This document shows, piece by piece, positions 1 through 15,806 of a stretch of DNA of 15,806 bases. Each line of letters starts with the position of its first letter. Position 1 is the first letter of the stretch. The stretch lies in the IMG/VR virus record IMGVR_UViG_643348547_000009; one strand, given 5' to 3'. The position numbers and the translations under genes are program-made. The notes beneath the pieces were generated by a model, which was not told the origin of the DNA, ran no database searches, and saw only the letters and a program-made list of their open reading frames with translations. Source of the stretch: a virus. Its lineage: Duplodnaviria > Heunggongvirae > Uroviricota > Caudoviricetes.

Positions 1-1461
1 ATGAAAAAATTACTGCGTCTTTTTTTCCCGCTCTCGCTGCGGGTACGTTTTCTGTTGGCAACGGCAGCGGTAGTACTGGTGCTTTCGCTTGCCTACGGAA
101 TGGTCGCGCTGATCGGTTATAGCGTCAGTTTCGATAAAACTACGTTTCGGCTGTTACGTGGCGAGAGCAATCTGTTCTATACCCTTGCGAAGTGGGAAAA
201 CAATAAGTTGCATGTCGAGTTACCCGAAAATATCGACAAGCAAAGCCCCACCATGACGCTAATTTATGATGAGAACGGGCAGCTTTTATGGGCGCAACGT
301 GACGTGCCCTGGCTGATGAAGATGATCCAGCCTGACTGGCTGAAATCGAATGGTTTTCATGAAATTGAAGCGGATGTTAACGATACCAGCCTCTTGCTGA
401 GTGGAGATCATTCGATACAGCAACAGTTGCAGGAAGTGCGGGAAGATGATGACGACGCGGAGATGACCCACTCGGTAGCGGTAAACGTCTACCCGGCAAC
501 ATCGCGGATGCCAAAGTTAACCATTGTGGTGGTGGATACCATTCCGGTGGAGCTAAAAAGTTCCTATATGGTCTGGAGCTGGTTTATCTATGTGCTCTCA
601 GCCAATCTGCTGTTAGTGATCCCGCTGCTGTGGGTCGCCGCCTGGTGGAGTTTACGCCCCATCGAAGCCCTGGCAAAAGAAGTCCGCGAACTGGAAGAAC
701 ATAACCGCGAATTGCTCAATCCTGCCACAACGCGAGAACTGACCAGTCTGGTACGAAACCTGAACCGACTGTTAAAAAGTGAACGCGAACGTTACGACAA
801 ATATCGTACGACGCTCACCGACCTGACCCATAGTCTGAAAACGCCACTGGCGGTGCTGCAAAGTACGCTGCGTTCTCTGCGTAGTGAGAAGATGAGCGTC
901 AGTGATGCTGAGCCGGTAATGCTGGAGCAAATCAGCCGCATTTCACAGCAAATTGGCTACTACCTGCATCGTGCCAGTATGCGCGGCGGGACATTGCTTA
1001 GCCGCGAGCTGCATCCGGTCGCCCCACTGTTGGACAATCTCACCTCGGCGCTGAACAAAGTGTATCAACGCAAAGGGGTCAATATCTCTCTCGATATTTC
1101 GCCAGAGATCAGCTTTGTTGGTGAGCAGAACGATTTTGTCGAGGTGATGGGCAATGTGCTGGATAATGCCTGTAAATATTGCCTCGAGTTTGTCGAAATT
1201 TCTGCAAGGCAAACCGACGAGCATCTCTATATTGTGGTCGAGGATGATGGCCCCGGTATTCCATTAAGCAAGCGAGAGGTCATTTTCGACCGTGGTCAAC
1301 GGGTTGATACTTTACGCCCTGGGCAAGGTGTGGGGCTGGCGGTAGCCCGCGAAATCACCGAGCAATATGAGGGTAAAATCGTCGCCGGAGAGAGCATGCT
1401 GGGCGGTGCGCGGATGGAGGTGATTTTTGGTCGCCAGCATTCTGCGCCGAAAGATGAATAA
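1..1461 (+). CDS. phoQ: Sensor histidine kinase PhoQ of the PhoP/PhoQ two-component system, complete 486 aa
   Basis: ATG at 1, TAA at 1459-1461. Two hydrophobic TM segments flank a periplasmic domain with the acidic cluster EDDDDAEM; H-box [11 protein letters not shown]; ATP-binding G-boxes DDGPGI and GQGVGLAV. Sequence matches E. coli PhoQ as I remember it. Confidence 0.97.
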
Positions 1462-1584: not shown

Positions 1585-1610
1585 AAACAACGTGGAACAA
1601 ATAGACACAA
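1585..1610. repeat. Three direct hexamer repeats (AAACAA, GAACAA, ACACAA) at exact 10 bp spacing; shares the 15-mer AACAACGTGGAACAA with 8861-8875
   Basis: Read directly: tgAAACAAcgtgGAACAAatagACACAAgaa. The 15-mer at 1586-1600 is identical to 8861-8875, and the flanks also align with indels. Confidence 0.6.
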
Positions 1611-1898: not shown

Positions 1899-1922
1899 AA
1901 AAAATGACGTTGGCCACGTCAT
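1899..1922 (-). terminator. Candidate rho-independent terminator ending the packaging operon
   Basis: On the minus strand, inverted repeat ATGACGT / ACGTCAT (1904-1910 and 1916-1922) with a 5 nt loop, followed by a T6 run (A-run 1899-1904 on plus). About 70 nt downstream of the stop of ORF 1993-2274. Confidence 0.45.
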
Positions 1923-1992
1923 CCGGAAAGCACAAAATCACGTCGATTTTTAATGGATGGTTAAACCGTCTTTATCTCGATGTCCGTACGTA

Positions 1993-2274
1993 TTACGTAC
2001 GCAGTCGTTCCGGCTTCTTCCAGTGGTACGTTATTTTCTCCTTCTCCCGATACATCTCCACGCGGCGACGGTAGGCCAGCAACTCAAGAACTCTGGTTCG
2101 TATGTTGCGCATATCCACGCCATTAAGCTGGATACCATCACGGCGCATCACCTCAGCAACAACACGCGCATAATTTTCGGCTGTCACGCTGTCCGGCTGC
2201 GTGGTCTGTTCGTCAGCCTGCTGGTTGATTCCAGAGACGCGGCGGATTAATCGCAGTATTTCGGCTTCTGTCAT
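1993..2274 (-). CDS. Hypothetical 93 aa protein, last gene of the packaging operon
   Basis: ATG at 2274 with a GAGG Shine-Dalgarno 8 nt upstream; starts 13 nt after the TerL stop; basic C-terminus. I do not recognise the family. Confidence 0.5.
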   Translation of the reverse strand: MTEAEILRLIRRVSGINQQADEQTTQPDSVTAENYARVVAEVMRRDGIQLNGVDMRNIRTRVLELLAYRRRVEMYREKEKITYHWKKPERLRT

Positions 2275-2287
2275 GCTGCTGACCTCA

Positions 2288-3949
2288 TTACACCCCGCTA
2301 AATTCTTCCAGTTTCTGGCGGTGGCTGTCGCTTATATCAAAAGCAAAATCCTCATGCTCTGCCTGAAATGTACCAAACGCCATCAGTGCCGCTACGCTCG
2401 GGTCTATCTTGTTCGGTGATTTTTTCTTGTTCGGCTTGATATTGGCGTTCGCGTCACTCTGCATCACGACGTTACTCATCGACCAGGACAACACCGGATC
2501 GCCACGATGCACAATCACCCTGCGGTTAACAAAAACTTCGAACGATTTCGCCGCCGGACTGAATCTGAGGTAGGTTTGCGGGAACGGCTCCACCTCAAAG
2601 CCTGCCCCCTGTAATTGCGTTCTCAGGTGCGTGGCGTTCCACGTATCGAAGCCCACCAACCTGATATTAAATTTCTCGGCGTCCTGCATGATGTCATCTC
2701 TGATCCGGTCGTAATCAATGCAGTCGCCAGGCGTTGTGCATATCCAGCCCGCTTTAGCCCACTGGCGATAGACAGCGCGATTTTTATTGGCTGGGTTCTG
2801 TAGCTGGAACTCCGGCAGATAATGACGGGAAACCAGCATGATATTTTTACCGACCGGAAAGGCATAGCATACGCTGGAAATATCGCTGGTTGATGATAAG
2901 TCCAGCCCCGCGTAACACTCCTGACCGTGTAAATCTTCCTCCGTGAACGTTCCGGTACACTCAGCCCATGCACCATTACCCATCCACGGGGTAGTCCCCT
3001 GACACCAGATATTAAATCGCTTTGTCATCATCTCCACCCACTGCGACGGAATACCCCGCGCTTTCTGGATGGTTGAGGCCAGTTTTTCACGATCGACGGA
3101 AACATCGATGTTAGGGTTAGCCTTTATCCACATCGCCGGATCATCAACCTCGTTTTCGTCGTCCAGTTCGTAAATCAGTACAAAAATTGAATCGTTGACC
3201 TCTTCGCCGTCCAGGATCTGGCAGCAATAATCATAGTGCTGCTTACAGGCTGAAACGACGTTACTGCCCGATGTGGTAATGGCAAATAACAGCCCTTCGG
3301 GACGTGCGCCCATCCCCAGCTCAAGCGCGGAATAAACGCCGTTATCGGGGTGTAGGTGGTATTCGTCCACGATAGAAAGACTGGGGTTTGTCCCCTCGAT
3401 GGTTGCTGCTTTTGCTGCCAGCGGCTTTAACAGGCTGTTGCTTTTCGGGTGTATCACCTTATGCGCCTGAATATTCACCCGCCTGCGTAACGGTCGGGAT
3501 AAAAGGCACATCTGACGCGCATCATCAAAGACGATCCGCGCCTGGTCACGGCTCACCGCTGCGGTGTAGATATCCTGCTGACCGTTCTCCATAATCAGAA
3601 ACCAGTTAGCCAGAATCGCGGCGGTCGTGGATTTCGCATTTTTGCGCGGCACTTCGATAAAGGCGCTCGTGTATTTGCGCCGTCCGGTGGCCTTAACCTT
3701 AAAGCCGAGGATGCACGCAAAGGCGAACTGCTGCCACGGCTCCAGCTCAATGGGTCTGCCACGCATCGGTCCTTTTACGTGCGGGCACACCCTGGAAAAG
3801 GCAATAAACCGCTCCACAACCTCACGATCGAACGTGTAAAGGGGGCTTTTAAGGTCCGAAAAGTACCGTTTAACAGCCTGTTTTAACCGTTTACAGGCCG
3901 GAATTTTGCCCGTTTTTACGTCTTCTGCGTACTTATTCCAGGCGGTCAA
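2288..3949 (-). CDS. Phage terminase large subunit (553 aa)
   Basis: Walker-A-like PRKNAKST in the N-terminal ATPase region and an acidic nuclease-type C-terminal half; follows TerS directly. Start is TTG at 3949 with a GAGGA Shine-Dalgarno 5 nt upstream and overlaps the TerS 3' end by 17 nt; there is no in-frame ATG nearby. Confidence 0.88.
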   Translation of the reverse strand: MTAWNKYAEDVKTGKIPACKRLKQAVKRYFSDLKSPLYTFDREVVERFIAFSRVCPHVKGPMRGRPIELEPWQQFAFACILGFKVKATGRRKYTSAFIEVPRKNAKSTTAAILANWFLIMENGQQDIYTAAVSRDQARIVFDDARQMCLLSRPLRRRVNIQAHKVIHPKSNSLLKPLAAKAATIEGTNPSLSIVDEYHLHPDNGVYSALELGMGARPEGLLFAITTSGSNVVSACKQHYDYCCQILDGEEVNDSIFVLIYELDDENEVDDPAMWIKANPNIDVSVDREKLASTIQKARGIPSQWVEMMTKRFNIWCQGTTPWMGNGAWAECTGTFTEEDLHGQECYAGLDLSSTSDISSVCYAFPVGKNIMLVSRHYLPEFQLQNPANKNRAVYRQWAKAGWICTTPGDCIDYDRIRDDIMQDAEKFNIRLVGFDTWNATHLRTQLQGAGFEVEPFPQTYLRFSPAAKSFEVFVNRRVIVHRGDPVLSWSMSNVVMQSDANANIKPNKKKSPNKIDPSVAALMAFGTFQAEHEDFAFDISDSHRQKLEEFSGV

Positions 3950-4289
3950 GCTCGTCCTCTTCTTCTGTTTCCGGTGGATTTTTACGGCGGCTTATCGGGT
4001 CAAAACCGAGCAAGGAGGCCATTTTTATCATCACTCTTTCAGCGTCGGATTTTGCGCTTAATGCGGGGTTTCTGCTCTCGCCGCCCTGACTGTTAACAAT
4101 GCTGAACCCGCGCGCCGCAAGGTCTGCAACGGCTTTCCGGTAAATGGAGTAGTTGACGCAATACAGTTCCAGATTGCTCCAGTCGGCGGGGGTCAGGTCT
4201 CCCCGTTCCGCAAGCTGCCGCGATTTTTCCCGCCACTGCTTCACGGCGATATCATCCAGGTAGGCGGGGGCTTTCGGTGGTCTTGCCAT
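3933..4289 (-). CDS. Phage terminase small subunit, P27-like (118 aa)
   Basis: Small protein immediately upstream of and overlapping TerL, with an acidic C-terminal tail (ETEEEDELDRLE). The sequence resembles P27-family TerS as I remember it. Confidence 0.75.
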   Translation of the reverse strand: MARPPKAPAYLDDIAVKQWREKSRQLAERGDLTPADWSNLELYCVNYSIYRKAVADLAARGFSIVNSQGGESRNPALSAKSDAERVMIKMASLLGFDPISRRKNPPETEEEDELDRLE

Positions 4290-4340
4290 GCTTATTTTTC
4301 GTCAGATTATTTTTCAAAAAATTCCCGTGCATAAAAATTT

Positions 4341-4400
4341 GGGGAGGCGGTCGGTGCCCGGCGGGGTCGGGTTTGTCCTGAAAACGCCCCCCACCCCGTC
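4341..4400. other. Candidate cos / packaging recognition site in the HNH-TerS intergenic region
   Basis: GC-rich tract ggggaggcggtcggtgcccggcggggtcgggtttgtcctgaaaacgccccccaccccgtc, with a G-rich left end and a C-rich right end in inverted symmetry, lying between HNH and TerS where HNH-dependent cos sites usually sit. The first 10 nt (GGGGAGGCGG) resemble the start of the P2-type cohesive end GGCGAGGCGG, which I recall from memory. Confidence 0.35.
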
Positions 4401-4577
4401 ATACAGCCTCATCAGCGATTGCGGAAACATTCCATAACCTCGCGGTCACGGTCGGTTAATCGCTTCGCTGTGATGCGTTCTGCGCGTCCTGACGCTTTAT
4501 CTTTATGCCCTGTTTCCTGTGTCTTCCATGCGTCACGCTGCCTTATAAGTCCACGGATAAGGCGGTTTTGTTCCCGC

Positions 4578-5018
4578 TCATTCATCAGCGTCATACATCC
4601 AGTTATTGCGGTTAGCGGCCCGTTCTTCCTCTTCACGAAATCCACCTGCGGCACGCTTGCTTTTTGTTGCCGGATCAAGCCATTTCGTTTTCTGGTTATG
4701 GCACGCCTGACACAATGGTTGATGGTTCCATTCGGGCCAGAAGAGAACATCATCACCGCCATCGATGGGGATAATGTGATCCACCACCACGGCGGGCGTA
4801 TATATCCCCTTCTCAAGGCATCGCACGCATAACGGGTTTTTACTCAGATACATGGCGCGGTATTTGTCCCACTGTCTGGAGTACCCACGCGCGCGGCGGT
4901 GTCCTCGTCTGGCATCCTCTGCACGCCATGCCGCCCGCCTGTGCTCCTCACACTTGCCGGACTTCACGCGCCTGTTACAGCCTGGTTCTGTGCATCGTCT
5001 TAATGGTTGCCACGGCAT
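4578..5018 (-). CDS. HNH endonuclease, phage packaging-associated (146 aa)
   Basis: HNH-type motifs CVRCLEKG, VDHIIPIDGG and CQACHNQK; sits directly upstream of TerS as in HK97-like HNH/terminase systems. ATG at 5018 overlaps the stop of the upstream gene (ATGA). Confidence 0.85.
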   Translation of the reverse strand: MPWQPLRRCTEPGCNRRVKSGKCEEHRRAAWRAEDARRGHRRARGYSRQWDKYRAMYLSKNPLCVRCLEKGIYTPAVVVDHIIPIDGGDDVLFWPEWNHQPLCQACHNQKTKWLDPATKSKRAAGGFREEEERAANRNNWMYDADE

Positions 5019-5314
5019 CAGTACACCCCCACATCACGATAAACCGACCAGAGCATCCCTACAGCCAGCGGGATTTCTTTTGTGTCTCCATCCCCGACCG
5101 TGGCCCTGTATTCGTACAGTTGCGACACGTACATCATGCAGCCAATCTTTATGGCTGGCGTGAACTCCAGCCCGTCATCAAAGCGCCTGCCGATGTGTTT
5201 CTGGCACACCTCAAGCGCGGCGGCGATGTATCCGCTGATTAACTGGTCTTCCTCATTGCCATCAATGCGGCAATGGAGTTTCACTTCTTCCAGGGTGATT
5301 AATTCTGCTGTCAT
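5018..5314 (-). CDS. Head-tail connector protein, gp6-like (98 aa)
   Basis: N-terminal LEEVKLHCRIDGNEEDQLISGYIAAA pattern typical of gp6-like connector proteins; start and stop overlap neighbours by ATGA. Confidence 0.7.
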   Translation of the reverse strand: MTAELITLEEVKLHCRIDGNEEDQLISGYIAAALEVCQKHIGRRFDDGLEFTPAIKIGCMMYVSQLYEYRATVGDGDTKEIPLAVGMLWSVYRDVGVY

Positions 5315-5649
5315 CGTGGCGCACCTGTTTTACAAAGAATTTCCAGACGAGTCCTTTTACCGTCGGGAACGGGGGGGCCAACAATATCAAGCTCATTGCC
5401 GGAATAAGCCCCCGTGAGTACCCGTATCCGGCTGGATGCCGTAACATCCACACGAAAACGGATCCAGACTCTTACGGTTGCCTGTGCCGTTTCTGCACCT
5501 GCGGTCATGCGTTCCCGTCCGCTGATCCCTTTCACCTCCGCCCATACGGTGGCAACATCCTCCCATGTGCTTTTCATTGCACCGGAAGGGAGGCGGGAAA
5601 GTTTCGCGCTCATGATGACAATGCGATCCCTCATGCTCCCCGCTCTCAT
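5311..5649 (-). CDS. Phage head closure / head-tail joining protein (112 aa)
   Basis: Size, position between portal and connector, and resemblance to the head closure protein family; ATGA overlap with the portal stop. Confidence 0.68.
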   Translation of the reverse strand: MRAGSMRDRIVIMSAKLSRLPSGAMKSTWEDVATVWAEVKGISGRERMTAGAETAQATVRVWIRFRVDVTASSRIRVLTGAYSGNELDIVGPPVPDGKRTRLEILCKTGAPR

Positions 5650-6860
5650 GATTTGCCCTCTTTATCATCCTTTACTTCGATCTCCTGTTTCCAGGCCTGG
5701 CTGAACTCATCGCCACCATCACGCGGCGATAATCCCTCACGTTCGCGGGCTTCGTTCGGGCACATAACGCCGGACTTGATGCCGCGTTCATAGGTGGCAA
5801 AGCGTTCGCCAGGTGTGGCCCGTAACAGATCCGCGCTGTCAAACTCCACCTGATACCGGATACCAGGTACAGGCGAGGCCACCAGCAAAGCATTTTTTAT
5901 CTGCTGCTCAAAGTTCGCCAGCCACGGGCGCATCGTCATGGTGAGAAATGCGCGGCTTGCCTCGCTGAAATTGCTGTAGGTGCTGTTGCTGTATTCCTGC
6001 AGAAAAATCGGCGAGACGTTGAACATTCGGGCGATGTCTTCAATGGTGAAGCGACGGGAGGCCAGCCATTCAGCATCCTGGTTACTCATGCCAAGCTGCT
6101 GATAGCTCATACCCCCTTCAAGAATGGGCGTTTTTCCGGCGTTTCTGGCTCCTTTGTAGCGTTCCAGTGCGGCTAATGCCTGTTTGCCCTTCACGCCGTC
6201 CAGCCATTCGCCTGACGTGATAACCCCTGCTGCCATCATGCCATCACGCATCACGCTCGCGCCGTGGCGCTGTTGGGCCAGCCCAAGCCCCAGCGATTCG
6301 CGGCAGATGGTCACAGGTGAGCGCCCCATAAAGCCGTCATCCGTGGAGTAACGAAGGTGGAGAACCTCCCACGGTAAATAGTTGCGGGTGTTTCCGCTGT
6401 AAGCGTCAGTGATGCGGTAACGCCAGTTATGTTCCCCTGTCTGCTCAACATTCACCGACTGCGGCGGGTAAGGGTGCAAAGCCACTGGAAAACCATCACG
6501 CCCCCACTGAATCACCGCATAAGCATTACCGTTTAACAGGCAGTGGCGGACCATCATTCGCTTAAACTGATAGGGCGTCTGCCACGCGTTCGGGCGCTCG
6601 TTGAGGATATGATCGACCGGATGAGAATCAAGCCACTCGCGGGCCTCCTTCCCCTTCTCATTGCGTACCAGGTACAGGTAGCATGGCATAGTAGCCACCG
6701 CCTCAGAGATGACCGTGACGGCGTTCATGACGGCGGGGAGTGATTCCGCTGTCCCCGATGATACGTACTCACCCGCCCCCGTGTTCGATGTGCCAGCCAG
6801 CGCCATAAATTCATCCAGCGTCATGCTGCGATGCTCTTGTTTTCGTCTGAAAGGCCACAT
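5646..6860 (-). CDS. Phage portal protein, HK97 family (404 aa)
   Basis: About 400 aa protein adjacent to the prohead protease with an acidic C-terminal tail; GGGGG Shine-Dalgarno about 6 nt upstream of the ATG at 6860. Confidence 0.88.
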   Translation of the reverse strand: MWPFRRKQEHRSMTLDEFMALAGTSNTGAGEYVSSGTAESLPAVMNAVTVISEAVATMPCYLYLVRNEKGKEAREWLDSHPVDHILNERPNAWQTPYQFKRMMVRHCLLNGNAYAVIQWGRDGFPVALHPYPPQSVNVEQTGEHNWRYRITDAYSGNTRNYLPWEVLHLRYSTDDGFMGRSPVTICRESLGLGLAQQRHGASVMRDGMMAAGVITSGEWLDGVKGKQALAALERYKGARNAGKTPILEGGMSYQQLGMSNQDAEWLASRRFTIEDIARMFNVSPIFLQEYSNSTYSNFSEASRAFLTMTMRPWLANFEQQIKNALLVASPVPGIRYQVEFDSADLLRATPGERFATYERGIKSGVMCPNEAREREGLSPRDGGDEFSQAWKQEIEVKDDKEGKS

Positions 6861-6861
6861 A

Positions 6862-7437
6862 TCACACCCCCGCTAAATCCGCCCACCAGCGGCGATTATC
6901 CGCGCGTGGCATTTTTTCGGGGTGCTGCTCATACAGGGAACGGCGGGCCAGATCCACGCCGGAATCAGGGTAAGCCGGTACGGATGTAACGGTAATTTCG
7001 TACAGTTCCGCCACCAGCACGGTGCGCACGCATGGATCTGTTGTGGTATCCCATACATCCTTACGGGAACGAAAGCCAAAGCTCATCCCCGAGATATCAC
7101 CACGCTTAACCAGTTCGATAACGTCCCGCCCTGTACTGGTATCCGGTGGGGTCAGTTCAAAGCGTAACCCTGTTTCATCCTCTTCCAGTTTCAGCGTACC
7201 GGAACGGGTACGCCCCAGTAACATGCTGTGGTCGTGCTCATACAGGCCGCGAACGTCATTACCCGCCGCCAGCCACTCACTGAACGCCCCCCGCTGGAAT
7301 TTTTCGTAAAACTCACCCCATAGCAGATCAGAAAGGTTATTCCAGCGAACAACGTAACCCGTCAGCGTACTGGCTCCGCTGGTGGTGATTTCTGATGACC
7401 GGATTTCCATGCTCTTTTTCATATTTTTTTCACCCAT
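6862..7437 (-). CDS. HK97-family prohead protease (191 aa; start may instead be the ATG at 7422)
   Basis: Conserved protease-family segments LYEHDHS, GRTRSGTL and GMSFGF. The ATG at 7437 has no good Shine-Dalgarno; the in-frame ATG at 7422 has GGTGA about 9 nt upstream. Confidence 0.85.
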   Translation of the reverse strand: MGEKNMKKSMEIRSSEITTSGASTLTGYVVRWNNLSDLLWGEFYEKFQRGAFSEWLAAGNDVRGLYEHDHSMLLGRTRSGTLKLEEDETGLRFELTPPDTSTGRDVIELVKRGDISGMSFGFRSRKDVWDTTTDPCVRTVLVAELYEITVTSVPAYPDSGVDLARRSLYEQHPEKMPRADNRRWWADLAGV

Positions 7438-7445
7438 AAAACACC

Positions 7446-7468
7446 AAAGGGGCTTTTTAGCCCCTTTT
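7446..7468 (-). terminator. Stem-loop plus U-rich tract between the capsid and protease genes (candidate attenuator)
   Basis: Inverted repeat AAAGGGGC / GCCCCTTT (8 bp stem, 6 nt loop) 4 nt after the capsid stop; on the minus strand it is followed by GGTGTTTT and then the protease ATG. Confidence 0.4.
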
Positions 7469-7472
7469 TCTG

Positions 7473-8645
7473 TTAACCGCCGTTTTTCATCTCGAGGACT
7501 TTTATCGCGCGGGAGTCAACAACCCCGCCGCCGATGTATTTGTCCGTGTGTACCTTGTAGAAACCCGGCTCTGTAATGTTGTCCGGTCGGGTACGAATAC
7601 CCGTTTCATGGTCAACGATGAAATAACCGCGCTTAAAGTCACCGACAGCCAGCGGCGTTTTGCCTTTGCCGATGTCCGGCATACTTTCCAGGTAATAAAC
7701 AGGACGGCCCAGCAATGTGTCAGGTGCGCCCTCTTTGAGGCTGTCACGCCATACGTAATCACCGCTCTGGTTTTTCAGCTTCTGCAATGCTGCCGCTGTG
7801 CTCGAGTTCATCACCCATACGGCGTTCTTACGGTATTTCGCTTTCAGCTTGTAGAGGATGTCGATCAGTTCGTCCGCTGTAATGGCGGCTTCGGCTGCTG
7901 CTACCATTTTTTCAATGGTGCCAAAGGCGCGGGTTTTGTCGTTGGTTAGATCTCGGTTGTAACTCAGGAAACCTTTCGGCTTGCCAGTACCATTACCATT
8001 TACAAAATCATCTTCTTCGGTCGTGGCGAACGTATCGGCGATTTCAGACGATAACCAGCCCAGTACGTCCACCTCTGAAAAATCCAGAATTTCCTGTGTG
8101 GTTTTCGGGTAGGCATAGATCGGGTTAAGTTTGATGCTTACGCGCTCAACTTTCGGGGTGTTGGTTTCGTTACGCTTGCTGCCCTCGGTTCCATAATTTA
8201 CAGCCGCGCCACCTGTGGAAACCAGTTTCTGATATTCGTTTGATTTCGCCGTTTTCACGGTCGCAATCATTCGCATGACGCTTTCATCACTCAGTAACCG
8301 CATGACCTCGCGATCAAGCTCAGGGATAACGGTATAGCCACCGTCCTTGCCGCTGTTGCTAGTGGTGGATAATGAGCGAACGTCACCCGTTACGATGTAA
8401 TTGCGAAGTTCTGCGGGGTCAGTGGTCTGGCTGGCTTTACCTGGCTTGCTGCGCTCTTCGTCTGCAATGGCTTCAAGGCGGGAAATGTCTTTATCGAGGG
8501 ATTCAGCTTTAGCGCGTAATTCGTCAAATTTTGCGCCCTCAGCATCGTTAAGACTGCGGTTTTCTTTTTCCGCGTTCTCCAGCATGTCGCGCATCTGATT
8601 TTTAATGGCGGTTTTCTGCTGGCGTAATTCGATTATTCTCGGCAT
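7473..8645 (-). CDS. Major capsid protein, HK97 fold (390 aa)
   Basis: N-terminal coiled-coil scaffold-like delta domain (ELRQQKTAIKNQMRDMLENAEKE...), about 390 aa, adjacent to the prohead protease; ATG at 8645. Confidence 0.92.
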   Translation of the reverse strand: MPRIIELRQQKTAIKNQMRDMLENAEKENRSLNDAEGAKFDELRAKAESLDKDISRLEAIADEERSKPGKASQTTDPAELRNYIVTGDVRSLSTTSNSGKDGGYTVIPELDREVMRLLSDESVMRMIATVKTAKSNEYQKLVSTGGAAVNYGTEGSKRNETNTPKVERVSIKLNPIYAYPKTTQEILDFSEVDVLGWLSSEIADTFATTEEDDFVNGNGTGKPKGFLSYNRDLTNDKTRAFGTIEKMVAAAEAAITADELIDILYKLKAKYRKNAVWVMNSSTAAALQKLKNQSGDYVWRDSLKEGAPDTLLGRPVYYLESMPDIGKGKTPLAVGDFKRGYFIVDHETGIRTRPDNITEPGFYKVHTDKYIGGGVVDSRAIKVLEMKNGG

Positions 8646-8682
8646 AAAAAAAGTCCTGGGGTTAAGTAAGGAACTCCAGGAC
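8646..8682 (-). promoter_or_regulatory. Terminator-like hairpin plus T7 tract directly abutting the capsid start codon
   Basis: Minus strand reads GTCCTGG-(16 nt loop)-CCAGGAC-TTTTTTT-ATG. The only Shine-Dalgarno candidate (AGGA) is inside the 3' arm of the stem. Confidence 0.4.
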
Positions 8683-8859
8683 GCGGCAAAAACTCAACCG
8701 TTTTTCATAAGGAAATCAGCAATCGCACCGATCGTTTTCCCGCCTGGTAATGAATATTGGCGAGAACATTAACAGGCGGAAAAGTGGCCCCAGCGTCCTG
8801 GCACCACGGGCGAGAATAATCATGATTCAGTTCGGGTAAAATATGCCGATCCGGTCAGC

Positions 8860-8885
8860 GAACAACGTGGAACAACCACGAACAA
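8860..8885. repeat. Three GAACAA direct repeats at exact 10 bp spacing in the packaging-operon upstream region
   Basis: Read directly: cGAACAAcgtgGAACAAccacGAACAAataa; shares a 15-mer with 1586-1600. Confidence 0.6.
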
Positions 8886-8904
8886 ATAATTTACAAAACA
8901 TGAC

Positions 8905-8925
8905 AAAAAGCCGGATTGCTCCGGC
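8905..8925 (-). terminator. Candidate rho-independent terminator after the perC-like gene
   Basis: On the minus strand, GCCGGA-gcaa-TCCGGC (6 bp stem, tetraloop) followed by TTTTTGTCATGTTTTG, starting 7 nt after the perC-like stop. Confidence 0.5.
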
Positions 8926-8932
8926 TGTGTGA

Positions 8933-9205
8933 TTATCTGTCCTGGTAATTTCGCCATATTTCATCACCAGCACCATCCATACCCATTTCGGCATAAGTGC
9001 GATCGACCGCCTTTTTCAGGTCTCCGTAATTATCCGGCGGCTCCGGTGGCCTCTGTGCCTTCCTGGAACATTCCAGCCGTCGCATCGTGATGTGATGCCG
9101 TTCCTTGTCTGTCTCCACCAGTTGCATGACTTCACCCCATCGCGCCGACGCTCTCCGGTAAAAGCCTTTCGCCTCCAGTTCTTCCGCTATGCGGTCATGT
9201 ACCAT
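8933..9205 (-). CDS. PerC-family transcriptional regulator-like protein (90 aa)
   Basis: N-terminal pattern MVHDRIAEELEAKGFYRRASARW matches my recollection of PerC-family proteins; strong Shine-Dalgarno (GAGGGGGG); last gene before the head module. Confidence 0.55.
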   Translation of the reverse strand: MVHDRIAEELEAKGFYRRASARWGEVMQLVETDKERHHITMRRLECSRKAQRPPEPPDNYGDLKKAVDRTYAEMGMDGAGDEIWRNYQDR

Positions 9206-9214
9206 CGCCCCCCC

Positions 9215-9625
9215 TCAGAACGGAATATCATCACCGTAAGGGTCATCGCCTCCCGCTGGTGGCTGATTACCCTGTGTGCCTGTGGTCTTGCGTCGGCTCC
9301 CACCAGGTCGCGCCGTTCTGGCACTGATTACGCTGTCTGCAATAACCTGCCAGCCCTGCCGCGTTTCGCCGTTCTGGCCTGTCCACTGGCTTACCTGCAT
9401 GTTACCCGCCACGCTCACCAGCTCGCCTTTGTGGTGTTTTGCCAGTGCGTCGGCCTGTCTGCCAAACGCCAGGACGGATAACCACATCGTCGCCTGTCCG
9501 TCATCTGCCTGATTGCACGGCAGGGGGACCGCCATGCTTGCCATAGCCATTTGTGTGCCCTTGCTGGTGGTCTTTAACTGCGGGTCAGCCACCAGCCGCC
9601 CGTAAGCGGCTATCTGTGCTGTCAT
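9215..9625 (-). CDS. ssb: Single-stranded DNA-binding protein (136 aa)
   Basis: OB-fold-like N-terminal region alignable with E. coli SSB, a Gly/Pro/Gln-rich linker, and the acidic C-terminal tip DDIPF. Confidence 0.8.
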   Translation of the reverse strand: MTAQIAAYGRLVADPQLKTTSKGTQMAMASMAVPLPCNQADDGQATMWLSVLAFGRQADALAKHHKGELVSVAGNMQVSQWTGQNGETRQGWQVIADSVISARTARPGGSRRKTTGTQGNQPPAGGDDPYGDDIPF

Positions 9626-10167: not shown

Positions 10168-11916
10168 TTATAAAAACGCGTCGCAATCGTCTGTTGTTAT
10201 TGCGTTAGTCTGCGTTACTCCCTTAACTTTCCGCGTAATATATTCATGTCCGTAAACTTTCGCGGCTGGCTTCATAGCCTTGCCAAAGTCATTTACGTTT
10301 AGCGGTTTGCTCCTGCCTGCGTATGCCATAAACGCCAGATAGACGCGGTAAAGGCTGTTTCTGGTCGTGTACTTCACTGAATCGCCACCGCCACCCATCA
10401 TCAGGCCGCGCGCTTCCTCCAGAAAATTCAGGAACTGGCAAAACTCAATAACCGGATCCGTCTGTTGCTTTATTGCCAGTGCTTCATCACCGTCACGCTG
10501 TTCCAGTAGTAAAGCCCGTGCCTTCTCAGGGTCGGTAAAGTTCGCCAGCAAGCGGCGGATAATGACAGGGATTTCAGCCGCGATCTTTTCCGGTAGCTCC
10601 CTGTCTTTTTCTGCCTCGCTTACGATATTGTCGAAGCGGAAAATAACCCGACGACGTGACACGCCTCCGGCCCGTTCGGTGAATATCATCGGGTTGTTAT
10701 TGGTCGCCAGCACCACCGCCCTGATTACCGTAGTGAAACGCTTTTCATATTTCGGGTTGATTTCCACGGGGTCGCCGCCCGTGATTTTCTTGATGCCCGT
10801 GCCTTCGCCTGTATATTTCGGCTGGTCTGCCAGGACGATAAGACGACTCCCGACAACCTGCGCACGCCCACCAGCATCATCAAGCGATGTCATTTCCGCG
10901 CTTACCGTGTTTTGTTTCCCCGCTAAAAGGCTGGCGATGTGGGTGAATGTACTTTTGCCGCTCCCGCCGTCTCCGGTGGCCTCAATAAACATCTGCCAGT
11001 CGTACCGGTTCGCCATAATCATGTACAGCGCGGCACATATACGCATCATCTTGCGCGAGTCTTTTCCGGCTGCGTGCTCAAGCCATTTATGAAAGTTTGG
11101 CGCGTTATCGCGGATGTTCTCCCCTGGTGCTGGTGGCGTGTACTCAATGCCGTTGTTCGTGGTGATCCAGTTCTCCGGCGTGTGCGGGGAAAATTCCCCC
11201 GTTTTCAGGTCAAGCGCACCATTGGCGAACGGCAGCAAATCGCCGGACGGCTCGCCCATTGGTTCGGCAATAACTTTTAACGCTTCCACGGCGTTATTGA
11301 TTACGCGCTTGCTGAAAGTGGCCCTGTGCTCTGAATAGATCGCCACCATTTCGCGGCTAAGTTCCATTGTGCTGACCGGACACCATACCCCGCCGCGCCA
11401 TACGTGAACGATTTCACTTTCCGGATGCACACAAACGCCATCAAATCGACCAGCAAGCATCTGTGCGCGCTCACTGTCTGCCATTTGTGCCAGTTGCGTA
11501 TTTTTCTGCTCCGGCATGGTAAGCCCTGCGGCAATATTTTCACGCTCAGCATTCAGATAGCGCCGCCAGTTTTCACACTTCTGGACGTGCATTCCTTCGG
11601 GGTAAAAATTTGCGTCCTGAATATCTGCCGCCGCCAGCTTCTGACCAATCTTTTTGGTCTCCACCAAATCCAGTTCTCCGGCCTGGTACAGCCTTACGCG
11701 TTTTTTTCCATCCGGAACAATTTTCAGTGCATCAAGTTCGGCAAGCTGATTTGGCCCAAGCCACACAGGCGGCACATTATCGCCGGATGCGGGGCCATCC
11801 TGCTCCTGCCATTGTTTCGCGTGCGACCAGGCATCACTACCCGCGAAAATAATTACCTCTGTGTCTTTGTGTTTTATTCCGCGTGGCTGTTTTTTTACGT
11901 TCGGTGCCAGTTTCAT
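10168..11916 (-). CDS. Phage/plasmid primase-helicase, P4 family (582 aa)
   Basis: Walker A motif GDGGSGKST in the C-terminal NTPase domain and a primase-like N-terminal half; ATG at 11916 with an AGGGG Shine-Dalgarno; followed by the iteron region. Confidence 0.88.
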   Translation of the reverse strand: MKLAPNVKKQPRGIKHKDTEVIIFAGSDAWSHAKQWQEQDGPASGDNVPPVWLGPNQLAELDALKIVPDGKKRVRLYQAGELDLVETKKIGQKLAAADIQDANFYPEGMHVQKCENWRRYLNAERENIAAGLTMPEQKNTQLAQMADSERAQMLAGRFDGVCVHPESEIVHVWRGGVWCPVSTMELSREMVAIYSEHRATFSKRVINNAVEALKVIAEPMGEPSGDLLPFANGALDLKTGEFSPHTPENWITTNNGIEYTPPAPGENIRDNAPNFHKWLEHAAGKDSRKMMRICAALYMIMANRYDWQMFIEATGDGGSGKSTFTHIASLLAGKQNTVSAEMTSLDDAGGRAQVVGSRLIVLADQPKYTGEGTGIKKITGGDPVEINPKYEKRFTTVIRAVVLATNNNPMIFTERAGGVSRRRVIFRFDNIVSEAEKDRELPEKIAAEIPVIIRRLLANFTDPEKARALLLEQRDGDEALAIKQQTDPVIEFCQFLNFLEEARGLMMGGGGDSVKYTTRNSLYRVYLAFMAYAGRSKPLNVNDFGKAMKPAAKVYGHEYITRKVKGVTQTNAITTDDCDAFL

Positions 11917-12217: not shown

Positions 12218-12445
12218 TTATTCTCCGGTGTGCTGCGCTTTATTATTCTCGTGAATTGCCATCACTGTATTTAATTCATTAATAACAGGCGTTAATAGCG
12301 TACGCACGGCAGAAAACATCATTGAATCAGATTCATCGCCACTTTCCGGCACATCAATTAACTTAAGTAGTAATGCGTCCATTTCCTTTGCGCGGATTAA
12401 TGCGTTTTCAGAATGAACAAGAACATCAAAGGGTATTTTATGCAT
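12218..12445 (-). CDS. Hypothetical 75 aa protein
   Basis: ATG at 12445 preceded by AGGGGGGGA; start overlaps the last codons of the upstream Icd-like ORF (ATGCATAA). The longer 109 aa reading in the ORF track has no Shine-Dalgarno. Confidence 0.5.
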   Translation of the reverse strand: MHKIPFDVLVHSENALIRAKEMDALLLKLIDVPESGDESDSMMFSAVRTLLTPVINELNTVMAIHENNKAQHTGE

Positions 12446-12902
12446 GACTCCCCCCCTGGCGAATACGGGCGACAAAAATAAGATGTGCGTGCGGCAGCTG
12501 TGCACGTGCTTCGCGCTCAGTGGCAGCGGTAACGGTGAATATTGCAATACTGTCTGTCAGGCACTGCATAAAGCGCCAGACAAAATAAGGGCGTGCGAAT
12601 ACAGCCATGTGAAAGGCTCCCAGATGAATTTTAAGGAGTCTCGCTACTACGCTGCTAAACATGGTGGCGAGACGTAACAGGGTTAGCAGACTGGTCATCT
12701 GGAAACCAGCGAGCACAAAGGCTCCCCCGTTACGCCCCGCCATAATGCGGGTATGGGTAGGTTTACGGACACAAAAAAACCGCTTATCGGATGTGGGCGG
12801 CTGTCCGCCAGATGTATTCAGGCTGCTAAACCCGGTCGCCATGTGGGCGACGGGGGAAGCATACAGCCCCGTGATAATTTTTTGCAAGCGGTTTTTACGC
12901 AT
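12438..12902 (-). CDS. Icd-like (P4 cell-division-inhibitor family) domain protein, copy 1; full ORF is 154 aa, and an internal start at 12608 would give 56 aa
   Basis: C-terminal WRF...ATEREARAQ...FVARIRQGGSHA is paralogous to the C-terminus of copy 2. The ATG at 12902 has an AGGGG Shine-Dalgarno and overlaps the copy 2 stop; the ATG at 12608 has a GGGAG Shine-Dalgarno. Confidence 0.45.
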   Translation of the reverse strand: MRKNRLQKIITGLYASPVAHMATGFSSLNTSGGQPPTSDKRFFCVRKPTHTRIMAGRNGGAFVLAGFQMTSLLTLLRLATMFSSVVARLLKIHLGAFHMAVFARPYFVWRFMQCLTDSIAIFTVTAATEREARAQLPHAHLIFVARIRQGGSHA

Positions 12903-13098
12903 GATGTGACCCCTGACGAATACGGGCGGCGAATACCATCACGCAGCCAGCCGGGGATTGCTGGCGTGCCTCCTGTTCGCTGGTGGCCTCAATGGTAATC
13001 ACGCGCGGTTGTGCCGTGCTCAGGGCGATAAAACGCCAGATGTATTTATTCAGGTTGTGCGAATCCCGCCCTTGCGGGTGTGTGGTATGATTTAACAT
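12895..13098 (-). CDS. Icd-like small protein, copy 2 (67 aa)
   Basis: ATG at 13098 with GAGG 5 nt upstream; ...KYIWRF...ATSEQEARQQ...FAARIRQGSHHA. The long upstream in-frame extension (353 aa ORF) is Cys/Arg-rich and antisense to plus-strand genes, so it is treated as non-coding. Confidence 0.5.
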   Translation of the reverse strand: MLNHTTHPQGRDSHNLNKYIWRFIALSTAQPRVITIEATSEQEARQQSPAGCVMVFAARIRQGSHHA

Positions 13099-13192
13099 AG
13101 CTACCTCGATACTTTCGCTATCGTTGGTGGTTAGAAGCCCCGTTACTGCTCCTACAGTGCGGGGTTTCGTCGTTTCTACACCTTGCCTTAAT

Positions 13193-13249
13193 AAGGTGTT
13201 GAACACCAATTTAAATCGAGGTGTTAAACACGTCAAGTGTTGAACACTT
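13193..13249. promoter_or_regulatory. Three palindromic operator-like sites GTGTT-N-AACAC in the divergent control region
   Basis: GGTGTTgAACACC at 13195-13207, GTGTTaAACAC at 13221-13231, and the perfect 15 bp site AAGTGTTgAACACTT at 13235-13249; centres are spaced 25 and 16 bp apart. Confidence 0.55.
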
Positions 13250-13268
13250 ATTTTTTTTCCTGCATACT
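13240..13268 (+). promoter_or_regulatory. Candidate sigma70 promoter for the plus-strand RHH gene, overlapping operator 3
   Basis: TTGAAC at 13240-13245, a 17 bp spacer containing a T8 run, and CATACT at 13263-13268, about 30 nt upstream of the ATG at 13298. Confidence 0.3.
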
Positions 13269-13297
13269 GCATTTGTTTTTTATGAAGGGTGCTCAAC

Positions 13298-13477
13298 ATG
13301 GCGACAAAAGCAGTAAACGCAAAATCACAAACAGTTGCGGCAAGGGTTCCACATGAAGTTATGAACAATGTTGAGGCGGTAAAAATGCCCGGCGAAAGTA
13401 CAGGGCAGTTTGTTACAGCTGCATTAAAGCGGGAAGTTGAATACCGCCAGCGTCGCAAGGCCAAAGAATCAGAATAA
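13298..13477 (+). CDS. Small ribbon-helix-helix-like DNA-binding protein (59 aa), candidate island regulator
   Basis: ATG at 13298 (the ORF track starts at an upstream GTG at 13289); AAGGG 9 nt upstream. The pattern ARVPHEVMNNVEAV...GESTGQFVTAALKREV fits a beta-strand, helix, helix (Arc/CopG-like) layout. Confidence 0.5.
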   Translation: MATKAVNAKSQTVAARVPHEVMNNVEAVKMPGESTGQFVTAALKREVEYRQRRKAKESE

Positions 13478-13534
13478 TCACTATCAGCGCCGTGGCGTGA
13501 GGTACTCCGGCGCATTGCTTTACAGGTCAGTACT

Positions 13535-13744
13535 ATGAGCAAAAAACACCGATCAGCAGATGAGATTTTTGCAGAACAACGAAGATTGCTTTTGCAAAGT
13601 ATCATTTCACGCCAGCAAGAGAAGGCGCGAGCTAAACAAATGCCACCAAATACAGAACCAGCGCCTACAAGATTTGCGCTTGATGACTTTCTCGATAAAC
13701 ACCCCAGGGTAATGAAAGCAAACAAAAACCGCCCACCAGGCTGA
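13535..13744 (+). CDS. Hypothetical 69 aa basic protein, second gene of the plus-strand module
   Basis: ATG at 13535 with a weak Shine-Dalgarno; co-directional with the RHH gene and followed by a strong terminator; no family recognised. Confidence 0.35.
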   Translation: MSKKHRSADEIFAEQRRLLLQSIISRQQEKARAKQMPPNTEPAPTRFALDDFLDKHPRVMKANKNRPPG

Positions 13745-13839
13745 TCACATTGCCCACCAGCCTGATAGCGGCTATCATCCCCGTGCTTATGTTTGAGATC
13801 ACACACACAAACGGCGCAGCGGGTTATCTGTTCAGAAAG

Positions 13840-13870
13840 GCGGCTCCATTTCGGGGCCGCTTTTTTTATT
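13840..13870 (+). terminator. Rho-independent terminator of the plus-strand module
   Basis: GCGGCTCC-atttc-GGGGCCGC (8 bp stem with one G-U pair) followed by TTTTTTTATT. Confidence 0.6.
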
Positions 13871-14013
13871 CCTGAAAAACCCCAATTTTGTTGTTTTTCA
13901 GTTTCACCAGGGCGAACGAATCCCCGCCCACGTTCTGGCGTATATTCAATCTTCATGGTTATAGCTCTGTGTTCAGATGATTGATGTGTGGCGGCTGCGT
14001 GCCGCCAGCGTGA

Positions 14014-14202
14014 TTAATGAACTGCCTTGCAGCTATCCTTCCAGGCCAGAACCTCGGATAAAGACCAGCCAACGGAACGACCGCCAAGTTTACGACGTGA
14101 TGGGAATTGTCCGGCCTTTTCCAGGCGGTAGCGACACGTACGGCTAAGGCCGGTTAGTTTTTCGCATTCTTTTTCACGTATAAACCGATCAGTGCTTAAC
14201 AC
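14014..14202 (-). CDS. alpA: AlpA-family phage transcriptional regulator (62 aa)
   Basis: HTH segment LTGLSRTCRYRLEKAGQFPSRRKLGGRSVGWSLSEVLAW typical of the AlpA family; GTG start at 14202 with an AAGGGGG Shine-Dalgarno 5 nt upstream; immediately downstream of int. Confidence 0.8.
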   Translation of the reverse strand: MLSTDRFIREKECEKLTGLSRTCRYRLEKAGQFPSRRKLGGRSVGWSLSEVLAWKDSCKAVH

Positions 14203-14396: not shown

Positions 14397-14576
14397 GCTA
14401 TTTAAAGAGTGATTCGCTAGTGTATAAAAAACCAGTAACACATTAAAAATCAGCTACTTATAAATCCGTACACTTTTTCGCCTCTTGTTCGTAGTTGTTC
14501 CGCATTGTTGCTCATTGTTGCACGTTGTATCTGTTCGCATATCCAGTATGCGCATACTGAAAAAACACGAAAAAAA

Positions 14577-15806
14577 TTATTTTCTTCTGGCTACTGGTAG
14601 CGTGGTTACGTTTTCATGTGTTCCCGCCAGTATCCCTAACCGCTCCGTCCACATATCCAGCGCATTGCGTTTAGCATCCAGATAACGGGAATGATTATAA
14701 ACTCGCTGCATTCCTGGCATCTGGTGGCCTGTAAGCTGCTCCACGACGTGAGGATCCACGCCTAAATCGCTCAGCATCGTTGTAAAGGTGCGCCGGATGT
14801 CATGTAGTGACCAGTGAGGGTGATTTAGCCTCCTGTGCGCTAATCTGCCGTACTGCGACACGCTTGTTTCCTGTTTCACTTCCCCCAGCAATAAGCCCGT
14901 GTGCCTGTTCTGCTCCACCAGCTGCGTGACGAACGGCAGTATTGCTTCCGGTATGGGCCGGAATATTGCCACCTTCGTTTTGCTGTGTTCTTTCGGCACG
15001 GTCCAGAGCATTTCGGTAAAATCCCACTCGCTGATCTCCGATAACCTCAGTTCTACCGTCCGGCATCCGAACACAATCAGGAGGCGGATTAACGCGATGT
15101 AGTAGGGGGAGAATATTTTTTTGTCCAGTGCCTGCAATAATTCGCCCAGTTCTTTGGTGCTTAAGACACGCTCGCTTATATCCGGTTTTTTCCCAACGTC
15201 CGCCACACTCATATCATCAAGAACGTTGCTGATTGCATAGCGCCGCCTCCGGCAGAACTTAAGCGCCTGTTTGCACGTCTGTAGCAAGAATCCGGCAGTA
15301 ACAGGCGTTCGCTTTGCCACCTGGTCAAAACAGGCCAGCCAGTGCCGTAGCTCGCATTTATCCAGCGGCATAGCACCAATGTGCTGTATTACGTGATTAT
15401 TAAGGCGCTTTTTCAGGGCGGCATAATCCACGCGGTTTTCCTTTGCGTACGACTCAAGCCAGTAGGTGAGCGCATCGCCAACCGTTACCGGCTTTAACGC
15501 TTCCTGTACGGTGTAATTAAGCTCATGACGTGGATTTTTCCCCTCTGCCAGCCATGCGCGACACTGGGCGGCTTTTTCCCTGGCTGATTTCAGGCTCAGA
15601 TCAGGATAATTTCCCAGCTTAATGCGTTCCGGTGGTGCCCCCCTTCCCGTTCCGGCCCTGTAAGTGAAATACCAGGTTAAAAGGCCACTGGTTGAATGCC
15701 TGACGCTCAGGTTTCCACCGTCATTAAGAAAGGCTGTTTTTTGGGCGGGTGTGCCGTTGATTTTCCTCAGCTGTGTATCGCTCAGTTTGTTAAGTGCTCT
15801 GCTCAT
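14577..15806 (-). CDS. int: Site-specific tyrosine integrase, P4-type (409 aa)
   Basis: ATG is formed by the last three bases of the window. N-terminal arm-binding-like domain, and a C-terminal catalytic region (...HDIRRTFTT...YNHSRYLD) consistent with the tyrosine recombinase R/H/R/Y arrangement. Confidence 0.93.
   Translation of the reverse strand: MSRALNKLSDTQLRKINGTPAQKTAFLNDGGNLSVRHSTSGLLTWYFTYRAGTGRGAPPERIKLGNYPDLSLKSAREKAAQCRAWLAEGKNPRHELNYTVQEALKPVTVGDALTYWLESYAKENRVDYAALKKRLNNHVIQHIGAMPLDKCELRHWLACFDQVAKRTPVTAGFLLQTCKQALKFCRRRRYAISNVLDDMSVADVGKKPDISERVLSTKELGELLQALDKKIFSPYYIALIRLLIVFGCRTVELRLSEISEWDFTEMLWTVPKEHSKTKVAIFRPIPEAILPFVTQLVEQNRHTGLLLGEVKQETSVSQYGRLAHRRLNHPHWSLHDIRRTFTTMLSDLGVDPHVVEQLTGHQMPGMQRVYNHSRYLDAKRNALDMWTERLGILAGTHENVTTLPVARRK

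Follow-up and report, generated by a model that had tools for sequence, protein, structure and literature searches.

A Head and Packaging Operon in a Conserved, Permuted Order Points to a Capsid-Forming Satellite Allied to EcCIEDL933

The Head and Packaging Locus

The virus record IMGVR_UViG_643348547_000009 is a DNA stretch of 15,806 nucleotides (the window, meaning this whole stretch at its full length). Positions 2288-8645 hold eight head-morphogenesis and DNA-packaging genes, transcribed from the minus strand in the order capsid, S78 protease, portal, head closure, gp6-like connector, HNH, TerS (P27), and TerL. The element that carries this operon is almost certainly a capsid-forming phage-inducible chromosomal island (cf-PICI), a satellite and not a phage, and represents a mosaic allelic variant of the EcCIEDL933 island at the same roxA/phoQ site. 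Genes were assigned from a listing of open reading frames (ORFs) and from profile searches against Pfam and PHROGs, and the two collections agree. The eight assignments made in an initial annotation of this DNA hold, with coordinates and strand unchanged, and two small ORFs (4412-4594 and 1993-2274) are added to its gene list. The operon and its control regions, in the direction of transcription, are as follows.

8909-8926, minus strand: terminator-like hairpin ending the perC unit (scanner and folding, z = -3.5)
8646-8908, minus strand: leader and probable promoter region of the head and packaging operon, with three phased TTGTT pentamers at 8861-8885
7473-8645, minus strand: major capsid protein, HK97-fold, first gene of the operon (PF05065, 2.7e-71; phrog_10)
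7446-7467, minus strand: conserved GC hairpin in the 35-nt gap between capsid and protease (terminator scanner and folding)
6862-7437, minus strand: HK97-type prohead serine protease, S78 (PF04586, 1.1e-47; phrog_80)
5646-6860, minus strand: portal (PF04860, 8.2e-92; phrog_12)
5311-5649, minus strand: head closure, or head completion, Hc1 (PF05521, 1.5e-23; phrog_25)
5018-5314, minus strand: gp6-like head-tail connector, or adaptor, Ad1 (PF05135, 1.7e-10; phrog_40)
4578-5018, minus strand: HNH endonuclease, packaging cofactor (PF01844, 1.2e-08; phrog_144, 9e-45)
4412-4594, minus strand: conserved 60-aa ORF between HNH and TerS (phrog_3173; detected in many loci)
4290-4411, no strand: GC-rich non-coding gap of 122 nt, one of two operon gaps, probable cos
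3933-4289, minus strand: small terminase TerS, P27 family (PF05119, 1.3e-23; phrog_83)
2288-3949, minus strand: large terminase TerL (PF03354 and PF20441; phrog_9, 3e-178)
1993-2274, minus strand: conserved hypothetical gene of 93 aa (hyp93) after TerL (phrog_1561; 89% identical to its EcCIEDL933 homolog)

All eight head and packaging genes are full length against their Pfam models. They are closely coupled, with overlaps of 1-17 nt or a spacing of 1 nt, the longest overlap being that of terS with TerL, which starts at a TTG codon. Non-coding DNA interrupts the run from capsid to TerL just twice, for 35 nt between capsid and protease and for 122 nt between the small ORF and terS.

A Satellite Island Between phoQ and roxA

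The operon lies in an island of about 14.3 kb between phoQ and roxA that is bounded by a 21-bp att repeat. The closest complete genome is that of Escherichia coli CE10 (97.6% identity), where the island is found between the same two genes, also with a 21-bp direct repeat. The second att copy lies 26 nt past the int ATG in CE10 and EDL933, which places it outside the window. The window end (15806) is 14.26 kb from the att core (1548); with the second copy the island comes to about 14.3 kb, inside the cf-PICI size range of about 10-18 kb. All genes in the interval from phoQ to the integrase are on the minus strand, including one for a DUF4222 protein. The remaining features of the island and its flank are given below.

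1-1461, plus strand: phoQ, at the window start
1548-1568, no strand: phoQ-side copy of the att core, ACTACACCATTAACTACACCG; this 21-bp direct repeat bounds the island at both ends in CE10 and EDL933, and the window letters are identical
8933-9205, minus strand: PerC-family transcriptional activator (PF06069, 2.7e-43)
9215-9625, minus strand: single-strand DNA-binding protein, SSB (PF00436)
10168-11916, minus strand: D5_N / DUF5906 primase-replicase (phrog_864, 3e-169)
12660-12747, minus strand: C4 antisense RNA in the Icd-like immunity region (Rfam RF01695, 72.7 bits)
14014-14202, minus strand: AlpA-family regulator (PF05930, 5.4e-17)
14485-14529, minus strand: five phased (A/T)ACAA pentamers between int and alpA (pentamer scan)
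14577-15806, minus strand: tyrosine integrase with arm-binding and catalytic domains (PF13356 and PF00589); its start codon is the window end

The gene content was compared, through the Pfam and PHROGs matches, with the cf-PICI component and forbidden-class list of the SatelliteFinder model (PMC10085698). All 11 core components are present: integrase, AlpA regulator, primase-replicase, capsid, prohead protease, portal, head-tail adaptor, head-tail connector, HNH, TerS, and TerL. In the same model, portal, connector, closure, and TerL components are forbidden markers for PICIs (PMC10085698); all four are encoded here, which separates the island from classical PICIs of the EcCICFT073 type. It does not read as a complete HK97-like prophage either. 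No tail, holin, or endolysin family was matched among the ORFs of at least about 55 aa between att (1548) and int, each compared with at least one of Pfam, NCBIfam, and PHROGs; the gene order is non-canonical, and the element spans only about 14 kb. A few small ORFs in the island have no family match of any kind.

The prototype cf-PICI is EcCIEDL933 from E. coli O157:H7 EDL933, described by Alqurainy et al. (10.1101/2022.09.08.507074) as a 15.4-kb island with int, alpA, and rep along with capsid, protease, portal, head-tail connectors, HNH, TerS, and TerL, and without tail genes. Mutation of each gene in its packaging module, from the major capsid gene to TerL, abolished transfer, except in the case of one hypothetical gene, where transfer was severely reduced; the island was still transferred when the homologous genes of the helper phage were mutated (10.1101/2022.09.08.507074). 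EcCIEDL933 builds its own small capsids and needs only tails from the helper; dependence on a helper phage and AlpA for induction, and exclusive self-packaging, were shown for this prototype (10.1101/2022.09.08.507074). In the EDL933 chromosome it was located between roxA and phoQ with the identical 21-bp repeat, and it is like the window island in chromosomal site, att repeat, and gene order throughout. A mark of cf-PICIs is an attachment site of their own with flanking direct repeats that prophages do not use, and the roxA/phoQ site is a candidate for one. The eight packaging-module proteins of the window are 51-100% identical to those of EcCIEDL933 over their full length, where similarity to the prototype among cf-PICIs is 50-90% (10.1101/2022.09.08.507074). 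Identity is high for Int (99.8%), AlpA (98%), HNH (100%), TerS (100%), TerL (98%), portal (97%), and protease (95%). The 60-aa ORF at 4412-4594 is 100% identical, PerC is 88% identical, and the leader at 8646-8908 is 96.7% identical to the EcCIEDL933 upstream region.

Several points weigh against equating the window island with this satellite. Identity falls to 70% for the capsid, 51% for head closure, and 74% for the connector. Adaptor and connector alleles determine tail compatibility in cf-PICIs (10.1101/2025.02.11.637232), so with its different closure and connector alleles this copy may use a different helper tail, or have another helper specificity, than the prototype. Helper dependence, small capsids, and cos cutting would be carried over to the window island by analogy with EcCIEDL933, which limits the reading. 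Finally, alpA is co-directional with int. A divergent pair of transcriptional regulators next to int was a manual search criterion in the methods of the founding cf-PICI paper (10.1101/2022.09.08.507074); such a pair is literally not seen here, and profile scans of the window ORFs recognised no divergent regulator near int. EcCIEDL933 shares the int-alpA arrangement of the window, so this feature does not discriminate within the clade.

Gene Order Across the Clade

Relatives were gathered by a capsid-based search of one genome per species, which yielded 80 loci from Enterobacterales, Pasteurellaceae, and Orbaceae, and CE10, EDL933, and vB_KppS-Ant were added. A locus was considered complete if all seven readily detected genes were present. 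Of 66 complete loci, 65 show the identical one-strand order, and none of the 11 truncated loci conflicts with it. The sole exception is vB_KppS-Ant, whose genes follow one another in the same cycle, with the break falling between HNH and TerS. The order has been inherited across the proteobacterial cf-PICI clade as a whole and is not a local rearrangement. It is also a published signature of that clade: capsid, protease, portal, and head connectors followed by hnh, terS, and terL is the conserved organisation of proteobacterial cf-PICIs (10.1101/2022.09.08.507074), and the same order served as a search criterion in a 2025 preprint (10.1101/2025.02.11.637232). Nothing new is added by the order itself. 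In one locus, from Xenorhabdus kozodoii, the capsid-protease pair occurs twice in tandem ahead of the portal gene (L059: capsid-protease-capsid-protease-portal and onward), suggesting that two cf-PICIs lie side by side or that one is partly duplicated.

Identity to the closest true phages, here represented by SfII and Pseudomonas phage VW-6S, is only about 34-38% for the capsid and about 34-36% for TerL. Both are annotated in the canonical order TerS-TerL-portal-protease-capsid-connector-closure-tail, and synteny comparison with them confirms that the order in the window differs from that of canonical HK97-like phages. Two sub-orders are reversed with the strand kept: portal-protease-capsid became capsid-protease-portal, and connector-closure became closure-connector. 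The integration and replication module lies between TerL and the head genes in the island and after the head-tail genes in the phages. The initial annotation was correct to call this a true permutation and not an inversion, because no single inversion yields two local reversals on one strand. Its description can be refined in that HNH-TerS-TerL is not itself permuted: HNH is already the neighbour of cos and TerS when the genome of a cos phage is circular or concatemeric. The interpretation given there is partly supported. The gene calls and the permutation survive, and neither of the refuting conditions named there, wrong protein assignments or canonical order among close relatives, was borne out. 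The context was missed, a cf-PICI satellite and not an HK97-like phage, and the cf-PICI order had already been published.

A Conserved Hairpin Behind the Capsid Gene

The 35-nt gap after the capsid gene contains the hairpin AAAGGGGCT-AAAA-AGCCCCTTT, followed by GGTGTTTT with a short, interrupted T tract. It was flagged as terminator-like by the scanner, and its folding energy is well below that of shuffles (z = -3.4 and -5.6). A hairpin at this place had been noted from the letters alone, and it proves to be real in the window and widespread among relatives. It occurs no more than 35 nt from the stop codon in 78 of 84 capsid 3' ends, about 75 of which have the (A)GGGG…CCCC(T) type. The 47 unique hairpin sequences comprise 30 different loops and 34 stem variants, with a mean dG of -13 kcal/mol vs -5 kcal/mol for shuffles. 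Compensatory stem changes are seen occasionally among the relatives (for example GGGAT/ATCCC and CGGGGC/GCCCCG). The two cf-PICI papers (10.1101/2022.09.08.507074 and 10.1101/2025.02.11.637232) make no mention of a terminator, hairpin, or promoter. That the hairpin is conserved in almost the whole clade, is common to canonical-order phages, and marks one of the two operon gaps are modest additions to what is known of the order.

Three results limit the case made for the hairpin. Covariation analysis (RNAalifold on a MAFFT alignment of the 47 unique sequences) predicted only 3 pairs and was uninformative, because the GGGG/CCCC core is near-invariant and loop lengths vary; support for the hairpin is accordingly taken from pairing potential, the variety of loops and stems, and dG against shuffles. 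The T run after the stem is only 3-6 nt in 40 of the 47 sequences. The hairpin is also absent from six of the 84 capsid 3' ends, all from Xenorhabdus/Photorhabdus (L030, L037, L054, L056, L060, and L076). Given the short T run, a leaky terminator or a 3' stabilising stem-loop fits better as a candidate role than a strong terminator. In the six loci that lack the hairpin, the protease gene starts no more than about 25 nt after the capsid stop codon, and they provide a natural control for the attenuator hypothesis.

Hairpins of the same kind directly follow the capsid genes of SfII (AGGGGCGCGG-AA-CCGCGCCCCT) and VW-6S (GGGCGCC-TAC-GGGCGCC). Their presence in canonical-order phages indicates that the hairpin travels with the capsid gene as an ancestral companion, and the idea that it was an innovation tied to the new order was rejected on this ground. 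In the ancestral phage order the hairpin could only separate the capsid gene from the connector and tail genes; in the cf-PICI order it stands upstream of every low-copy gene.

Control of the Operon and Capsid Stoichiometry

That a capsid-first order followed by a hairpin would favour high capsid output is plausible and is modestly supported by conservation. In addition to its frequency in the clade and its position in one of the two operon gaps, the ribosome-binding sites point the same way. By a crude measure, Shine-Dalgarno energies are -4.0 kcal/mol for the capsid gene, about -10 for portal and HNH, and essentially nil for TerS. The capsid site is not the strongest of the module, and Shine-Dalgarno strength was therefore rejected as the cause of capsid abundance; the weak site leaves room for an effect at the transcript level. 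A more specific proposal is that the capsid-first order was selected so that one leaky, conserved hairpin sets the ratio of capsid to the seven low-copy proteins and that, in this E. coli lineage, an AlpA- or Int-type protein acting at phased TTGTT repeats may also switch the operon on. Taken as a whole we consider this rather unlikely.

The perC unit has its own terminator-like hairpin, suggesting that the head operon probably has its own promoter within 8646-8908. A sigma-70 scan found no minus-strand match upstream of the capsid gene, and its total matches were not above shuffle expectation; the lack of a good sigma-70 consensus in the leader suggests dependence on an activator. The PerC gene lies directly upstream of the head operon, and the head-operon promoter or host genes are candidate targets of its product. 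At the other end of the module, folding predicts a possible terminator-like stem at 1902-1924 (minus strand), about 70 nt past hyp93, with the letters GATGACGT-GGCCA-ACGTCAT and then a T run. This stem was not flagged by the scanner, and the energy of the region is not above that of shuffles.

Alternative Explanations for the Order

The order could instead be a neutral historical legacy with no role in expression, handed down from a rearrangement or piecemeal assembly in the ancestor of the clade, with the hairpin an ancestral adjunct of the capsid gene. We regard this as quite possible, if a little short of probable, and as at least as likely as the functional idea that capsid-first placement raises capsid output. 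It accords with the invariance of the order, which leaves no variants within the clade on which selection could be seen, and with the six capsid 3' ends that keep the order without a hairpin. The GC hairpins of SfII and VW-6S, which argue against a stoichiometric device special to this order, fit it equally, as do the other independent cf-PICI lineages that use other orders, including one with HNH-TerS-TerL first (10.1101/2022.09.08.507074). A purely neutral origin is harder to reconcile with strict conservation over three bacterial orders despite heavy gene mosaicism, which suggests constraint. Morphogenesis genes also precede packaging genes in two of three independent cf-PICI lineages (10.1101/2022.09.08.507074), and the capsid Shine-Dalgarno site, weaker than those of portal and HNH, implies that another layer must raise capsid output.

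A second alternative would see the island as a decayed, scrambled, and non-functional cryptic prophage of the HK97-like type that lost its tail and lysis genes. HK97-type head genes without tail or lysis functions are what such a remnant would contain. The eight genes are, on the other hand, full length and tightly coupled, and the same compact element occurs in the same order in many genera; about one in three complete E. coli genomes contains homologous sequence. A near-identical prototype is experimentally mobile (10.1101/2022.09.08.507074), and related elements have been recovered from lysates as records of about 15-16.5 kb. A prophage, whether complete or decayed, is thus very improbable: the absence of tail and lysis genes, the intact genes, and the layout of the prototype satellite speak for a cf-PICI.

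A local assembly artefact, or a strain-specific rearrangement of a canonical phage module, which canonical order in close relatives would have indicated, has no point in its favour and can be dismissed given that the permuted order recurs in relatives: 65 of 66 independent and complete loci have it, as do the closed CE10 and EDL933 genomes and 109 E. coli genomes that cover at least 80% of the head region.

The cos Site and the Proposed Course of Transfer

In HNH-dependent cos phages the cos site is established to lie between HNH and terS (cited in 10.1101/2022.09.08.507074). The corresponding place in the window is the 122-nt gap, and the termini of vB_KppS-Ant, whose record begins 22 nt before terS and ends past HNH and a small ORF, align to the edges of this gap region, where the window has about 60 extra nt. 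The cos site probably lies within 4290-4411, between HNH with the 60-aa ORF and terS; the vB_KppS-Ant alignment does not fix the exact cut position.

By homology with the prototype, a helper phage would induce the island through AlpA, and the island would then excise and replicate. Capsid, protease, and portal would form small, island-specific procapsids of the HK97 fold, and HNH, TerS, and TerL would cut the island's own cos and package its DNA. Closure and connector proteins would complete the head so that helper-phage tails can dock. The hairpin would most likely act either by lowering transcription of the seven low-copy genes downstream of it or by making the capsid message more stable than theirs.

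Phased Pentamers and the Immunity Module

AACAA/TTGTT pentamers in a 10-bp register form three clusters in the window, at 1586-1610 (plus), 8861-8885 (plus), and 14485-14529 (minus). The first lies beside the att core and the third in the int-alpA spacer; the second follows closely on the perC terminator, 216-240 nt ahead of the capsid ATG. Between 8 and 10 pentamer matches were observed where 0.7-1.5 were expected, and in CE10 and EDL933 an exact word of 19-25 nt is common to the capsid leader and an int flank. The pentamers are candidate binding sites for AlpA/excisionase or for the arm-binding domain of Int, which would link excision with activation of the operon. Phased TTGTT repeats upstream of the capsid gene were rejected as a general cf-PICI feature: only 6 of 83 loci have them, and these essentially amount to the E. 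coli/Shigella int/alpA lineage. In a generic test, words shared by the capsid leader with the int flanks reached significance in just 5 of 36 loci.

Just 26 nt separate the int ATG from the att core, so transcription of int must come from across the att junction. The roxA-side flank in CE10 (locus L001, 16805-16870) resembles the phoQ-side end of the island (1548-1610) for about 65 bp beyond the att core, with phased ACAA repeats.

The region 12438-13956 is an immunity module of the P1/P4 type within the cf-PICI. The C4 RNA is embedded in a 154-aa Icd-like ORF, whose neighbour, an intact 353-aa ORF (12895-13956), has an Icd-like domain at its C terminus. In CE10 the counterpart of the 353-aa ORF is a pseudogene with a fragment, and other DNA stands in place of window 13135-13444.

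Mosaic Alleles in a Conserved Backbone

Against a backbone 95-100% identical to EcCIEDL933, the mosaic stretches are window positions 5018-5649 and 7473-8420. Capsid residues 1 to about 75 are 100% identical to the prototype and the remainder about 60%, a drop that places a recombination breakpoint inside the N-terminal, delta or scaffold-like part. Among complete E. coli genomes, ZH063 and SB0258h1 alone carry the capsid allele of the window (at about 97%), and nothing in the one-genome-per-species set exceeds 73% identity to it. What this copy modestly adds is its rare capsid, closure, and connector alleles, set in a backbone that is otherwise like that of EcCIEDL933. Together with the conservation of the hairpin, they could guide work on expression stoichiometry and tail specificity.

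Satellites Among Records Labelled as Phages

Recognition of cf-PICIs matters mainly for annotation, given that islands of about 14-16 kb are routinely labelled cryptic prophages and are even deposited as phages. These islands transfer DNA between species using borrowed tails (10.1101/2025.02.11.637232). The best matches to the window in phage databases (59-81% identity) are records of 3.8-16.5 kb that are evidently cf-PICIs or fragments of them, together with one record of 106 kb. Phage-labelled records that resemble or contain a cf-PICI include LR881103.1 (L082), PQ569648.1 at 86000-106503 (L087), OR544138/OR544139, and OR850982. The record for Salmonella phage S.Kent 1-2-1 is a 3.8-kb fragment. 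In the 106-kb Klebsiella phage P12620-1, the last ~16 kb contain matches to TerL (81.6%) and to the capsid (70.6%) that lie about 10 kb from each other and are ordered as in vB_KppS-Ant; the genes of this record are all annotated as hypothetical.

Comparison with Known Systems

The island shares with HNH-dependent cos phages (HK97; SfII and VW-6S) a homologous HK97-fold capsid, S78 protease, portal, gp6-like connector, closure, P27-type TerS, TerL, and HNH. It differs from HK97-like phages in the absence of tail and lysis matches, in the head block placed upstream of HNH, and in the two reversed sub-orders.

Classical Gram-negative PICIs (EcCICFT073 and EcCIED1a) and P4-like satellites share with the window the left half made up of int, alpA, and primase, and the C4 antisense RNA of the P4/P1 type and the Icd-like domains are a further likeness to P4. 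Classical PICIs and P4 remodel helper capsids and, unlike the window island, encode no portal, connector, closure, or TerL. The cf-PICIs of Firmicutes, in one group from Bacillus, Clostridium, and Staphylococcus and another from Lactococcus and Enterococcus, have the same gene content and their own capsids (10.1101/2022.09.08.507074). Their operon orders are different, one group having HNH-TerS-TerL first, and capsid and TerL trees indicate independent origins (10.1101/2022.09.08.507074).

Among phage-labelled relatives, vB_KppS-Ant (LR881103, 16.5 kb, linear, from an induced lysate) has a capsid 71% and a TerL 81% identical to those of the window. Its order runs TerS-TerL, then int further on, and then primase-capsid-protease-portal-closure-connector-HNH, with no real tail module; an accessory gene of 765 aa directly after TerL is annotated as tape measure. 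Pasteurella phage Pmp8 (15.3 kb, likewise deposited as a linear genome) has a capsid 59% and a TerL 69% identical to the window proteins, and Pasteurella phage Pmp7 (10.7 kb) matches in TerL alone (69%).

EcCIEDL933 itself, the prototype and the system most like the window island, also shows differences outside the packaging module. The primase is of the D5_N type in the window and of the DUF927 type in EcCIEDL933, with the first ~160 aa alone aligning. The Icd-like accessory region is unlike that of the prototype, and the island measures about 14.3 kb in the window vs about 15.2-15.4 kb for EcCIEDL933.

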